Positions 447-9,102 of a DNA stretch of 33,660 nt are shown here, in pieces. How positions within the stretch are numbered: position 1 is the stretch's first letter; every line of letters begins with the position of its first letter. This stretch comes from a virus (Duplodnaviria > Heunggongvirae > Uroviricota > Caudoviricetes): IMG/VR virus record IMGVR_UViG_2913167280_000001; one strand, written 5' to 3'. Below the pieces are notes generated by a model that saw nothing but the letters and a program-made list of their open reading frames with translations, had not been told where the DNA came from and made no database searches. The position numbers and the translations under genes were made by a program.

Positions 447-3020
447 TTACTGGACGGCGACGATCCGGTCTTCATTAACTTCCAGGCGAATAACTTTACC
501 TGGAACCAATTCACCAGACAGTATTTGCTGTGCCAGCGGGTTTTCGATCTGCTGCTGGATAGCACGTTTCAGAGGACGTGCACCATAGACCGGATCGTAA
601 CCGTTCTCGCTCAGCAGTTTCAGCGCCTCGTCAGAAATGTGGATTTCATAACCACGTTCTTCCAGACGTTTGTACAGACGTTTCAACTGAATCTGCGCAA
701 TCGACGCAATGTGCTGTTCACCCAGCGGATGGAAGACCACCACCTCATCAATACGGTTAATAAACTCCGGACGGAAGTTATGGCTTACCACACCGAGCAC
801 CAGCTCTTTCATGTGCGCATAATCCAGTTCACCGAAGCGTTCCTGAATCAAATCGGAACCGAGGTTAGAGGTCATAATGACAACCGTATTACGGAAGTCG
901 ACCGTTCTCCCCTGCCCGTCAGTCAGACGCCCATCATCCAGTACCTGCAACAGAATGTTGAAGACATCCGGATGTGCTTTTTCCACTTCATCCAGCAGGA
1001 TGACGGAATACGGACGACGACGCACCGCTTCGGTCAGGTAGCCACCTTCTTCATAACCGACATATCCCGGAGGCGCACCAACCAGACGAGACACCGAGTG
1101 TTTCTCCATAAACTCGGACATATCGATACGGACCATCGCCTCGTCGCTATCAAACATAAAGTTCGCCAGCGCCTTACAAAGTTCAGTTTTACCCACACCA
1201 GTTGGGCCGAGGAACAGGAATGAACCAATCGGGCGATTTGGATCCGCCAGCCCCGCACGGCTACGACGAATAGCGTTAGATACCGCATCAACCGCTTCGT
1301 TCTGACCAATAACGCGCTGGTGCAGTTCTTGCTCCATACGCAGCAGTTTTTCGCGCTCGCTTTCCATCATGCGAGAAACCGGAATCCCCGTCCAACGCGC
1401 CAGCACTTCAGCAATTTCGGCGTCGGTCACTTTATTACGCAACAGACGCATAGTTTTGCCTTCGAGCTGCGTTGCGGCTTCCAGTTGCTTTTCCAGTTCC
1501 GGGATTTTGCCGTATTGCAGTTCAGACATCCGCGCCAGGTCACCCACACGGCGAGCCTGTTCAATGGCGATTTTCGCCTGCTCCAGTTCCGCTTTAATGG
1601 TCTGTGTACCAGAGAGCGACGCTTTCTCTGCTTTCCACTCTTCTTCTAACTCGGAGTACTGACGTTCTTTGTCGCTCAGTTCTTCGTTGAGCATATCCAG
1701 GCGTTTTTTACTGGCTTCATCAGACTCTTTCATTAACGCCTGTTGTTCCAGTTTGAGCTGGATGATACGACGATCGAGTCGGTCGAGTTCTTCCGGTTTT
1801 GAGTCAATCTGCATACGAATGCTGGATGCTGCTTCATCGATCAGGTCGATGGCTTTATCCGGCAGCTGACGGTCAGCAATGTAGCGATGAGACAATGTCG
1901 CCGCTGCAACAATTGCCGGGTCAGTAATTTGCACATGGTGGTGCAGCTCGTAACGTTCTTTCAGGCCACGCAGAATAGCAATGGTGTCCTCAACAGAAGG
2001 CTCGGCAACAAACACTTTCTGGAAGCGACGTTCCAACGCAGCATCTTTTTCGATGTACTGGCGATATTCGTCCAGCGTCGTAGCACCCACACAGTGCAGT
2101 TCACCACGCGCCAGTGCCGGTTTCAGCATATTCCCGGCGTCCATTGCGCCATCGGCTTTACCTGCGCCGACCATGGTATGTAATTCGTCGATAAACAGGA
2201 TGACGTTGCCTTCCTGTTTGGAGAGATCGTTAAGCACGCCTTTTAAACGTTCTTCAAACTCACCGCGATATTTCGCCCCAGCCACCAGCGCGCCCATATC
2301 CAGCGCCAGTACGCGGCGGCCTTTCAGCCCTTCCGGCACTTCACCATTAATAATACGCTGCGCCAGACCTTCAACGATGGCAGTTTTACCAACACCAGGC
2401 TCACCAATCAGCACCGGGTTATTTTTAGTACGACGTTGCAGTACCTGAATGGTACGGCGAATTTCTTCATCACGACCAATCACCGGATCGAGTTTGCCTT
2501 GTTCGGCTCGTTCGGTAAGGTCGATGGTGTATTTTTTCAAAGCCTGACGTTGGTCTTCAGCTCCTTGATCATTCACGCTTTCACCTCCGCGCATTTGTTC
2601 AATCGCTTGAGTAATGTTGGCGGTAGTCGCCCCTGCTGCTTTCAGGATATCGGCCAGCGTGCCGCGAGACTCAAGTGCCGCCAGAACGAACAGTTCTGAC
2701 GAGATAAAGTTATCACCACGTTTTTGCGCCAGCTTGTCGCAAAGATTAAGAACGCGCACCAGATCCTGTGATGGCTGGACATCGCCACCTGTACCTTCAA
2801 CCTGTGGTAAACGGTTTAATGCCTGAGTGATATCTGTGCGCAACTGGCCAGCATTGATGCCAGCAGATGTTAATAAAGGACTAACCGAACCCCCTTCCTG
2901 ATTCAGCAGGGCGCTCATTAAATGAAGTGGTTCGATGAATTGGTTGTCGTGCCCGAGTGCAAGTGATTGGGCATCGGCAAGAGCAAGCTGGAATTTATTA
3001 GTAAGACGATCCAGACGCAT
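447..3020 (-). CDS. clpB: ClpB disaggregase (AAA+ chaperone), 857 aa
   Basis: Translation begins [18 protein letters not shown] at the ATG at 3018-3020 with a GGAGG Shine-Dalgarno; two Walker A ([16 protein letters not shown]) nucleotide-binding domains. The ORF-track start at 3032 is a non-ATG extension. Confidence 0.97.
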
Positions 3021-3058
3021 AACTCCTCCCATAACGGATCAAAGTTGCTACTGGAGAT

Positions 3059-3087
3059 TAAATGAGGTCATCCCTCAATTATTCAAG
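3059..3087 (-). promoter_or_regulatory. sigma-32 heat-shock promoter for clpB
   Basis: Minus strand reads CTTGAA, then a 14-bp spacer, then CCTCATTTA, a close match to the sigma-32 consensus (CTTGAA / CCCCATNTA), about 40 bp upstream of the clpB ATG. Confidence 0.65.
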
Positions 3088-3149
3088 GTTATTGACCAGA
3101 TTAATGTGAAAAGAAAATCACGCGTACCGGATCGTCTTGATTCTTTAGG

Positions 3150-5946: not shown

Positions 5947-6342
<396 letters not shown>

Positions 6343-6494: not shown

Positions 6495-7301
6495 TTATGT
6501 AGCCGAAATGGTTGTGGTGATGGTCCCCCGAAGCCGCTGCGCAGCTACCTCAAAATAATGATCACTGGTTTCTATACCAATAAATTTTCGCCCTGCTTTC
6601 AGTGCAGCCACACCCGTTGTCCCTGACCCCATAAAAGGATCAAGGACTGTTCCGCCACTATTCGCAGTTCTGACCAGTTCTGCCATAAGTTCTTCTGGTT
6701 TTCCGGTCGGGTGCATTTTCTTTGATGGGATAACCGGGAACGTCATGCAGCCGTCGAACGGTCCCGAAGGCGATTTATCTAAATGGCCTTTACTGCCCCA
6801 GACGATGTATTCGCACTGATGCCGGAAATACCCCGTATGGGGTGTTCGTGACCCCCTTCCTTTGTTCCACGCAATGATGCCGCGCCATGTGAAACCACTG
6901 GCCTGAAATGCATCAGTTAAAGCTGGCAGTTGTCGCCAGTCAGTAAATACCAGGGCATAACCGCCCGGCCTGACTGCGCGGTGTGCCTGTGCCATCCATA
7001 ATTGTGTCCAGTAAGCCCACGAACGGGCATCCATGTTTTCACCCGCAAACCCATCAAAGCGATGAAGGCTCTCGCCGTTCAGATATTTTGCGTGGCTGCC
7101 CTGGTTGGTGCGTCCGGCCTTGTGTGTCGCGCCCGAACTGTAAGGCGGGTCAGTGATTAAGGCATCAATACTTTCTGGCTCAATCAGCGGCAATATTTCC
7201 AGCGCATTCCCACGACAGAGCGTGGCATTGTCAGTCTGATAAACCTTAGTGTGTTCCGGTGTATGTGCTGGTTGGTGCTGGATTGTGATCCCCACGGTCA
7301 T
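6495..7301 (-). CDS. beta-class DNA methyltransferase (N6-adenine or N4-cytosine), 268 aa
   Basis: DPPY catalytic motif at residues 51-54 lies N-terminal to the AdoMet-binding motif DPFMGSGTT (beta-class order). ATG at 7299-7301 with a GAGGAG Shine-Dalgarno. Confidence 0.85.
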   Translation of the reverse strand: MTVGITIQHQPAHTPEHTKVYQTDNATLCRGNALEILPLIEPESIDALITDPPYSSGATHKAGRTNQGSHAKYLNGESLHRFDGFAGENMDARSWAYWTQLWMAQAHRAVRPGGYALVFTDWRQLPALTDAFQASGFTWRGIIAWNKGRGSRTPHTGYFRHQCEYIVWGSKGHLDKSPSGPFDGCMTFPVIPSKKMHPTGKPEELMAELVRTANSGGTVLDPFMGSGTTGVAALKAGRKFIGIETSDHYFEVAAQRLRGTITTTISAT

Positions 7302-7443
7302 AACTCCTCATGTGTGTGGGGTGCTCGATGGCTCTCGTTATCTGGTTAAGTGTTTTGCAGCGCGGACATTTTATTTCAATGTAGTGAAATGAGGCGCGGG
7401 CAAGTAGTTTGTTGCAATTTTTGCATCGTACATTTTGCGTCAT
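7246..7443 (-). CDS. com: Com-like zinc-finger protein (Mu com family), about 65 aa
   Basis: Sequence MTQNVRCKNCNKLL...IEIKCPRCK carries the Cys4 pattern remembered from Mu Com (RCKNCNKLL...IEIRCPRCK). It overlaps the first 56 nt of the downstream methyltransferase gene. ATG at 7441-7443; the track start at 7452 is GTG. Confidence 0.75.
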   Translation of the reverse strand: MTQNVRCKNCNKLLARASFHYIEIKCPRCKTLNQITRAIEHPTHMRSYDRGDHNPAPTSTYTGTH

Positions 7444-7488
7444 TTGCGGCACCTCTTGTGTGGTTACTGCTGCCGATATGATAACAAA

Positions 7489-7526
7489 TTGATCGCTTTT
7501 ATCGATCGGTTTTATATTATCGATCT
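7489..7526. promoter_or_regulatory. cluster of three GATC (Dam) sites upstream of com
   Basis: GATC at 7491, 7504 and 7522, within 35 bp and 48-82 bp upstream of the com ATG, in the divergent intergenic region. Confidence 0.6.
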
Positions 7527-7982
7527 GTGTTTTCTATTTTGTTCATGGGGCTGTTTGGCCTCACTTGTGCTGTAGTTTTAATGCGGAGGCTTCAAGTGCA
7601 ATATTTAAAGGGAACACCATTACATCAGTCCCGATTTGCAAGTGTCAGGATTACATGTCCTTCAGAGTTTTCCTCTTCAATAGAGGAGTATTTTCAAAAT
7701 AATGGATTTGATATAGGTCGTGTGACTTGCTTCTCTGCGAATGCACCCGATATGCTTAGTGTTATGTTCGAATTGCTCTCACGGGCGAAAAAATTTGCAG
7801 GGGTTATTATGGGGTTGTTAAACAGGAATGATGTTGAAGTTGAGCTACACCTTTGTACCAGAGATGATGAGCCTAAAACTGCAAAGCTCAAATTAAGAAA
7901 CCTCAAAGATGTTGATGCGTGTGAGCGCCTGATTGATAAACTGGCTACTGTGGTAATAACGTCAAAGAAAAATGAAGAATAA
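7527..7982 (+). CDS. hypothetical protein, AT-rich accessory gene (start uncertain)
   Basis: ORF clearly lower in GC than its flanks, divergent from com. The track start is GTG; a GTG at 7596 preceded by GGAGG is another candidate start. No recognisable motif. Confidence 0.5.
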   Translation: MFSILFMGLFGLTCAVVLMRRLQVQYLKGTPLHQSRFASVRITCPSEFSSSIEEYFQNNGFDIGRVTCFSANAPDMLSVMFELLSRAKKFAGVIMGLLNRNDVEVELHLCTRDDEPKTAKLKLRNLKDVDACERLIDKLATVVITSKKNEE

Positions 7983-8014
7983 TCGGTAAGCCAACCACCC
8001 TCTCTGGAAATAAA

Positions 8015-8043
8015 AAGCCCGCGACTAATCCTGCGGGCTTTTT
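8015..8043. terminator. bidirectional intrinsic terminator
   Basis: Perfect 8-bp stem AAGCCCGC / GCGGGCTT flanked by an A5 run upstream and a T5 run downstream, 30 nt after the stop of the 7527-7982 ORF. Confidence 0.75.
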
Positions 8044-8536
8044 GCATTCAGGTTTGCGAGATAGGGTGCCTTATCGACCTTAACCCTGGCAACCGATTGA
8101 CGGGGGATTGCTCCCCCGTCGCGGTTTCCTTACTGCTTACACTGTAAGAACGCCGCAAACTCCGCTCCCCAGAAGCTCATCCGTATCTCACACAGCGAAC
8201 CGTGTAGCATCCAGATGATGAGGATTGCCGTCACGCAGAACGTGATGGCTATAAGCGATTTTTGCGACATAGCACTTGCTCCTTTTTTTGCAAAGGCGCT
8301 AAGCTCTTGCCCGCTTATTGATTACGTTGTGAAACGCCCAGAGTTGAACATAAGGTTTAGTTGGGCCTTTTTACATCTGGCCTTCGTGTTTGCTGTCCAG
8401 CCATCAGTCGAAAGGCGTCCGCGTGAATTCTAGCCTGCTTTTTTTTCTTGCTTCAATACGTTGACTAATTTCAACACTCTGTTGTGCATATCCTGAACGC
8501 AGACATTATTCAGTCACGCATTTGATACATGCTTCC

Positions 8537-8561
8537 GCCGGCGTTCGCGCCGGTTTTTTTT
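8537..8561 (+). terminator. orphan intrinsic terminator inside an ORF-poor region
   Basis: GC stem CCGGCG / CGCCGG followed by 8 T; no convincing protein-coding gene upstream. Confidence 0.55.
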
Positions 8562-8941
8562 CGTCCTGTTGTTGCGTAGATCGTCATGTGCGATCGAGGC
8601 GCGGCATTGATCCTTTTTTCAGTTTAATTTCGACTCTCAATTTTACGCAGGCCGCGCCGCGTCTGGCTTCGTTGTTTGACGATTTTTCTATGCGATCCTT
8701 TCGCGATCGTGTCTCGCCCCACGCAAAGCATGAAAACTCTTTTAATATCATGCGGTTTCGTTGACCCCGCCATTTATGGGATCGTAAAAAACTCTCTGAA
8801 AACTGAAAAAAATTTCAAAGCGTGAAATTTCAGATCTTCGCTTTTCCCTCAGTTGCTGCGCGGGCTGGCTGTCATTTTTGCACGGCAGAAAACTGAAAAA
8901 CTGTTTCGACACAAAACCCGCGGGTTGGAGGGGGTAGCGCG

Positions 8942-8986
8942 GTTTACGTCACCTCACGCTTTACGTCACACCGTTTACGTGGTGTG
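8942..8986. repeat. iteron-like direct repeats and an inverted repeat
   Basis: TTTACGTCAC at 8943-8952 and 8960-8969, TTTACGTGGT at 8974-8983; inverted repeat CACACC-N8-GGTGTG at 8967-8986. Confidence 0.6.
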
Positions 8987-9038
8987 CGCATACAGCGCCG
9001 GAATGGCACGCAGAACGCATTAATCAGGTGGCAGATAT

Positions 9039-9064
9039 GAAAACGCACGACCGGAGCCGTGCGT
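9039..9064 (-). terminator. putative terminator at the end of the tail operon
   Basis: Stem ACGCACG / CGTGCGT followed on the minus strand by 4 T, about 40 nt after the stop of the last tail gene. Confidence 0.4.
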
Positions 9065-9102
9065 TGCGTGATGGGCGTTTATGGGGGTTTTATGCCCGGT
9101 GA

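Follow-up and report, generated by a model that had tools for sequence, protein, structure and literature searches.

An uncharacterised accessory gene at the att-proximal edge of P2/HP1-like prophages of Enterobacterales

The open reading frame (ORF) at positions 7596-7982 (+) of the 33,660-nt stretch of DNA analysed here, referred to below as the window, is a genuine protein-coding and selectively maintained accessory gene of P2/HP1-like (Peduovirinae) prophages. It is an uncharacterised prophage moron, of a kind that will not surprise a specialist, and no publication on it was found in the literature. An earlier note, made from the sequence alone, had described the gene as prophage cargo, and this description is borne out by presence/absence polymorphism, varying neighbours at the att edge, atypical GC content and purifying selection.

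Genomic setting and extent of the gene

E. coli chromosome, with rluD, bamD and raiA (6001-6342), makes up the leftmost 6.4 kb of the window; the host small RNA RyfD (Rfam RF02768, 125 bits) is located in this chromosomal part at 3001-3139 (-). The prophage starts just past raiA and comprises genes for a methyltransferase and Com, the ORF and hok, followed by HP1/P2-like tail and baseplate genes. The gene order is identical in the RefSeq annotation of a 99.9%-identical genome.

The first prophage gene after raiA (6495-7301, -) encodes an N6/N4 DNA methyltransferase, according to Pfam (N6_N4_Mtase, E 2.5e-33), PADLOC (MTase_II, E 1e-62) and RefSeq. Next comes com (7246-7452, -), which shares 56 nt with the beginning of the methyltransferase gene; its product is a zinc-ribbon regulator of translation like Com of phage Mu (phrog 'gpCom control of modification'; Pfam Zn_ribbon_Com, E 1e-11). 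Together the two genes form a module (6495-7452) in the style of Mu com/mom, and this layout, with a triple of GATC sites upstream, is kept in phage Chuche and in a diverged metagenomic locus, L055. As in Mu, a Com zinc-ribbon gene overlaps the start of a modification gene at the end of the prophage, with the GATC triple upstream; however, the enzyme is an N6/N4 methyltransferase (PF01555) in place of Mom, and Mu has no divergent gene in the position of the ORF.

The reading frame is open from 7527 to 7982 (+) and would encode 151 amino acids if counted from the GTG codon at 7527, while the 128-residue form starting at GTG 7596 has the same coordinates as the RefSeq CDS WP_130259648.1. The latter start codon is preceded, at a distance of 6 nt, by a Shine-Dalgarno sequence GGAGG (7585-7589), and a purine-rich Shine-Dalgarno sequence occurs at the equivalent place in every other context examined. 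Four contexts also share a block GTA(A/G)TTTT, located 12-25 nt before the start codon and just upstream of the Shine-Dalgarno sequence. In another E. coli prophage variant (L002, NZ_CM143727.1) homology to the window begins about 30 nt upstream of 7596, and the sequences preceding the gene in Salmonella, Citrobacter, Pectobacterium, Yersinia and a distant E. coli subfamily bear no relation to that of the window, yet the start residue is the same; indeed, in every relative the protein begins at the position corresponding to 7596. The 151-residue reading adds an in-frame hydrophobic stretch of 23 codons, which is conserved in no other context. Because the start residue is the same despite unrelated upstream DNA, this extension appears to be an artefact, due to the frame being open upstream, and translation of it is improbable. 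The segment 7527-7595, for which the corresponding sequence in L002, L006, L012 and L004 is unrelated, would then represent a leader or a possible promoter region. Thus, the RefSeq call, the GGAGG sequence and the common start residue identify 7596-7982 as the gene, and the range of 128-151 residues first given for the product narrows to its lower value.

Protein-coding status is supported by the RefSeq CDS, a match to the family phrog_14142, the set of homologue clusters, substitution rates and an AF2 model. The length of the protein is constant down to 25% identity, nearly all full-length members of the approximately 60 clusters having 126-133 amino acids. Pairwise dN/dS values are 0.03-0.19 wherever dS is unsaturated, and the gene is under purifying selection. 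It could be supposed that the ORF is a chance or decaying frame without function, since no annotation or known domain attaches to it and few E. coli genomes carry it, but the conserved length, the confident predicted fold, the low dN/dS and the Shine-Dalgarno sequence present in every context effectively refute this supposition and leave it a negligible probability. The earlier note had named a lack of conservation in closely related prophages as one of the outcomes that would refute its proposal; the gene is conserved in six genera of Enterobacterales: it is kept across E. coli, Salmonella, Citrobacter, Enterobacter, Yersinia and Pectobacterium.

The base composition of the ORF is atypical, as expected of a moron. 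Its GC content is 39.3% (GC3 34%) versus 52.2% for the prophage part of the window, a difference of 13 points; windows of the same size average about 3 standard deviations higher, and just 0.26% of them are as low. The proposal that the gene has a lower GC content than the surrounding phage DNA is therefore correct.

The divergent com region and the terminator common to hok

The ORF is indeed transcribed divergently from com (7246-7452, -) across a cluster of GATC sites, as had been noticed. Three sites, at 7491, 7504 and 7522 (7491-7525), are located in the 143-bp com/ORF intergenic region, versus a window average of one site per 295 bp, and all three are kept in phage Chuche and in L055. The mom gene of Mu is controlled by a Dam/OxyR-sensitive GATC operator, and by analogy we infer that the triple upstream of com is a Dam-sensitive operator of this type. 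The ORF might share this operator with com.

A consensus scan of the region revealed a single consensus-like promoter site on the plus strand, TTGATC-N18-TATATT (7489-7518), which overlaps the GATC sites. The number of promoter-like sites, 4 against a shuffle expectation of 2.4±1.6, is not in excess, and the plus-strand candidate was rejected, being unconserved in L055. No conserved promoter of the ORF was found among the contexts compared.

The upstream regions of relatives point to other arrangements. In the loci adjacent to raiA a terminator-like hairpin immediately precedes the Shine-Dalgarno sequence of the ORF; this hairpin, AAAAAACCCCGAATCTGGGGTTTTTT, ends about 6 nt before the Shine-Dalgarno sequence in Salmonella (L006, 5950-6000), and the raiA-adjacent Citrobacter and Pectobacterium loci have it at the same place (L008, L016 and L018). 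It could be an attenuator, or it could end transcripts that run from int across attP. In the distant subfamily the homologue starts 10 nt past the int stop codon, behind an AGGAGG sequence, and therefore looks operonic and co-transcribed with int. In P2 lysogens int is transcribed together with the repressor gene C.

Another triple of GATC sites (8579, 8592 and 8609) is located in an unannotated gap at 8271-9102; apart from this gap and the com/ORF region, nowhere in the window do three such sites fall within 40 bp. The gap spans approximately 830 bp between hok and a gene for a 565-aa tail protein and contains no RefSeq gene; none of the five ORFs scanned in it had a Pfam match. The triple at 8579-8609 could be another Dam-sensitive control region.

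Thirty nucleotides past the stop codon of the ORF begins a hairpin, AAAAAGCCCGC-N10-GCGGGCTTTTT, with perfect 11-nt arms (8012-8022 and 8033-8043) and a 10-nt loop. The stem is G+C-rich and is preceded by an A-run and followed by a T-run (A5-GCCCGC / GCGGGC-T5), which would provide a U-tract on either strand, as in a bidirectional intrinsic terminator. The plus-strand fold has a z-score of -3.3 relative to shuffled sequences, none of which was as good, and the minus-strand fold a z-score of -2.5, matched by 5 of 200 shuffles. The perfect hairpin with A and T runs reported at this position is thus confirmed, and the predicted terminator at 8012-8043 would serve the ORF on the plus strand and the hok mRNA on the minus strand. 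An equivalent hairpin occupies the same place in L055 and in Chuche, in which the ORF is absent, and so it is not a private insulator of the ORF: of the insulating bidirectional terminator proposed earlier, the folds on both strands stand, but the insulation of this gene in particular does not. A hairpin 3' of the ORF is also found in the Salmonella and Pectobacterium loci, which makes a downstream stop a constant feature of the gene in other genera too. Overall, the hairpin is predicted to be a convergent terminator common to the ORF and the hok mRNA.

The convergent gene at 8130-8270 (-) encodes a type I toxin of the Hok/Gef family (Pfam HOK_GEF, E 2e-7; phrog_251, E 8.5e-23; RefSeq 'Hok/Gef family protein'). 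A putative full-length hok mRNA of about 415 nt (8008-8422, -; inferred end points) has a minimum free energy of -158 kcal/mol and a z-score of -5.8; its 5' end pairs with a 3' segment and its 3' end lies at the common hairpin. A promoter-like site for hok is present at 8456-8427. The search of Rfam revealed no RNA family in the ORF/hok region. The junction between sequences with and without the ORF is located just downstream of the 3' pairing segment of the hok mRNA, so that the fold-back pairing survives whether the ORF is gained or lost.

Protein family and predicted fold

The product has a molecular mass of 14.5 kDa and a pI of 6.7, with no transmembrane or hydrophobic segment, as expected of a soluble protein of the cytoplasm. 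It matches phrog_14142 (PHROGs v4) over its full length (residues 1-128 versus profile positions 1-128, E 7.4e-51), and all 44 aligned relatives match the same family. The family has no functional annotation, so that membership says nothing of mechanism. Homologues form 32 clusters in a single-sequence search and 60 in a profile search, and all named sources of these clusters are Enterobacterales; an exhaustive HMMER scan of 1.84 billion cluster representatives gave only 17 matches. No family member matched Pfam or NCBIfam. The window protein had no match among the 5027 models of PADLOC-DB v2, and its 44 relatives gave one spurious match (E 0.015). The absence of a recognisable motif, noticed at the outset, thus extends to Pfam, NCBIfam and PADLOC. 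Sequence and profile searches of the PDB returned noise only. Neither a signal peptide, secretion signal or effector-like domain, nor a helix-turn-helix or other DNA-binding signature, was found in the product.

A first AF2 run on 29 close homologues gave a pLDDT of 54.6, and a run on the 44-sequence alignment including distant members gave a pLDDT of 90 and a pTM of 0.85. The predicted structure is an α/β sandwich with the order β1-α1-β2-β3-α2-β4-β5-α3-β6. A Foldseek comparison with the PDB had a best E value of 0.12, and a structure search of BFVD yielded nothing below 1e-3. The predicted fold is therefore confident but orphan, without a known relative. The homology and structure search recommended earlier has thus assigned the protein to phrog_14142, with no significant relative in either structural collection.

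Invariant or nearly invariant residues are concentrated at the end of α2 and the start of β4 (A68, I71-M-G-L, R77, D79 and E81), at the end of β5 and the start of α3 (K99, L100, R101, D105 and C109), and in the N-terminal pair L9-H10. The alternation of residues along β4 and β5, with placement read from the alignment and secondary structure rather than from model coordinates, would set E81, E83 and H85 beside K97, K99 and R101 on one face of the sheet. This charged face suggests a conserved binding surface. A metal site formed by four cysteine/histidine residues was considered and is unlikely, since C45 and C87, two of the four cysteines, give way to other residues in distant members.

Two homologues, WP_133252896.1 (4010-4396 of L002) and ENA CAM7602060.1, carry the names 'RuvC family protein' and 'PDDEXK family nuclease'. 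Neither sequence nor fold similarity to RuvC or RNase H-like resolvases was found, and the protein does not show the αβββαβ core with D...(D/E)xK catalytic motif that marks PD-(D/E)XK nucleases. The likeness amounts to the names on these two records and to conserved acidic and basic residues on adjacent β-strands, nothing more. With no support from the tests of sequence or fold, both names are suspect; they are probably annotation errors that could spread.

Genomic contexts, distribution and possible function

In all contexts examined in detail, the ORF is located at the att-proximal edge of a P2/HP1-like prophage, and its neighbours vary. Homologues in Salmonella, Citrobacter and Pectobacterium are found directly after raiA, those in Yersinia after mlaA, sometimes beside a PemK toxin-antitoxin pair, and a 35%-identical subfamily after ybjL. 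The other E. coli prophage variant carries the gene after a 5'-truncated topB, with an Hsp70/J-domain pair, and in the 27%-identical E. coli subfamily it is next to btuC, behind int. The hok gene adjoins the ORF only in the E. coli and Yersinia types, and com and the methyltransferase gene do so in no arrangement other than the window type and L055; since most contexts of the ORF lack both hok and com, the idea that either is an obligatory partner was rejected. In L055, where the protein is 71% identical, the whole order methyltransferase-com-three GATC sites-ORF-hairpin-hok is kept, indicating that the arrangement in the window is not a one-off.

Several of these loci have features of their own. 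In L002 (1-3856) genes for a J-domain protein and an Hsp70-family protein together with the truncated topB replace com and the methyltransferase gene upstream of the ORF, and this unusual cargo set might be a conflict system. The PemK-type pair of Yersinia lies just upstream of the ORF (5127-5737 in L013 and L014), and one Yersinia prophage (L014, 6558-7243) has two hok copies downstream; toxin modules thus accumulate at the prophage edge. The Pectobacterium loci L016 and L017 (6001-9067), in which the ORF lies between raiA and pheA with only three further genes, one for an Ogr/Delta-like protein and two for unknown proteins, look like a prophage remnant retaining the ORF. In the subfamily adjacent to ybjL the homologue is directly followed, on the same strand, by an ORF of 120 aa (L027, 3054-3416; L029, 3339-3701) that is conserved and has no Pfam match; the two may form a two-gene module. 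Downstream of the Salmonella gene (L006, 6480-6760) dense short repeats of the GTGACGG / CCATCAC type, which look iteron-like, are present in a stretch of about 1 kb that precedes the tail-spike gene and in which no gene is called; the Citrobacter and Pectobacterium loci show the beginning of the repeat motif.

Of 5426 complete E. coli genomes, 13 carry the ORF and about 1500 have the com/hok flanks; the ORF is missing from most related prophages. In phage Chuche and most of these approximately 1500 genomes com and hok nearly abut; Chuche has the same com, three GATC sites and hok, with about 65 bp, including the terminator hairpin, where the ORF would be. Presence and absence between conserved flanks is evident from comparison of the window with Chuche, L002 and L055. 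By tblastn, the gene is absent from the 50,697 deposited phage genomes and the 72,556 plasmids searched, and only 2 of 185,579 species-representative genomes carry the gene. Most of the 34 IMG/VR viral contigs encoding it have it at the contig end. In Salmonella the gene is common, the members of one cluster being found on more than 1000 contigs. A repeat search revealed no flanking repeats that would suggest transposition. The gene is a stand-alone module moved by recombination in and out of the variable att-proximal phage end.

The product would be made in the lysogen. In the window, transcription would start from a promoter somewhere in the 143-bp com/ORF region that holds three Dam sites, and in the distant subfamily the homologue would be translated from the transcript of int; for the ORF, the hairpin common to hok would end transcription. 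Having no catalytic motif, membrane segment or obligatory partner gene, the protein would most likely bind a protein or a nucleic-acid or nucleotide target by the patch R77, D79, E81, K99, R101, D105 and H10. Its likeliest role would be in phage-phage or phage-host conflict, for example superinfection exclusion or defence benefiting the lysogen. To expression in the lysogen, binding rather than catalysis and a role in phage conflict, taken jointly, we assign a probability of about 40%.

Expression in the lysogen is favoured by the position of the distant subfamily behind int, while the hairpin immediately before the Shine-Dalgarno sequence in raiA-adjacent loci argues against simple constitutive expression. 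The conflict role is plausible from genomic context: the same slot holds the methyltransferase and Com, Hok, the PemK toxin-antitoxin pair and the Hsp70/J-domain pair, and the int-att region is a minor defence hotspot of P2-like phages (PMC13586616). On the other hand, there is no PADLOC match and no structural likeness to a solved defence or anti-defence protein, and the major defence hotspot of P2-like phages is gpA-gpQ (PMC9122126), from which the ORF locus differs in being att-proximal, on the ogr/tail side in most members. Like the accessory exclusion genes of P2 (old, tin and Z/fun), the ORF is non-essential, variable in presence and compositionally atypical; unlike them, it is without sequence or fold likeness to any PADLOC model, and its anti-phage activity is putative.

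A small soluble protein acting alone is as typical of an anti-defence inhibitor as of a defence effector, if not more so, and the product could instead serve the phage itself, not the lysogen, as an inhibitor in counter-defence or host takeover that binds and neutralises a host immunity protein or another host protein on infection or induction. The lack of motifs and of a partner gene is also typical of phage inhibitors, the gene lies beside the com-methyltransferase module, an anti-restriction device, in the window and L055, and on the circular phage genome it is situated just downstream of int-attP in the same direction. However, the protein resembles no solved anti-defence protein, its pI of 6.7 does not fit an acidic DNA mimic, and the gene lies outside the early operon of P2-like phages. 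Its absence from all deposited phage genomes searched and its retention before the host pheA in the apparent Pectobacterium remnant also argue against such a role, which we consider unlikely.

Equally unlikely is a lysogenic-conversion factor acting on host physiology or virulence and unrelated to phage conflict. The moron features (atypical GC, prophage-edge site and downstream terminator), the wide occurrence in Salmonella serovars and the position directly downstream of the stress gene raiA in several genera are in keeping with it, but the product lacks a signal peptide, secretion signal or effector-like domain, and no link to a pathotype emerged from the data examined. A still less likely function is regulation of prophage maintenance, either of integration and excision at att or of the hok or com-methyltransferase modules. 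The att-adjacent position is invariant in the loci examined, being int-adjacent in one subfamily, the order com-GATC-ORF-hok is kept in the diverged L055, and the terminator is common with hok; nevertheless, the protein has no DNA-binding signature and a neutral pI, hok and com are absent from most contexts with the ORF, and most related prophages work without it, Chuche being a viable isolated phage.

Returning to the conflict role, its most specific form would make phrog_14142 a new single-protein phage-conflict effector, anti-phage or anti-defence, with no solved fold relative and with expression tied in this E. coli lineage to the Dam-sensitive com-methyltransferase control region; so complete a picture is improbable. 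If expression of the ORF is tied to the Dam-sensitive divergent region, epigenetic switching would be possible. It is well established that accessory genes at prophage edges yield new proteins of immunity and counter-immunity, and this gene, being compact, under purifying selection and common in Salmonella, with a confidently predicted orphan fold, is a well-defined candidate that would be cheap to take into phage-challenge screens and structure determination.
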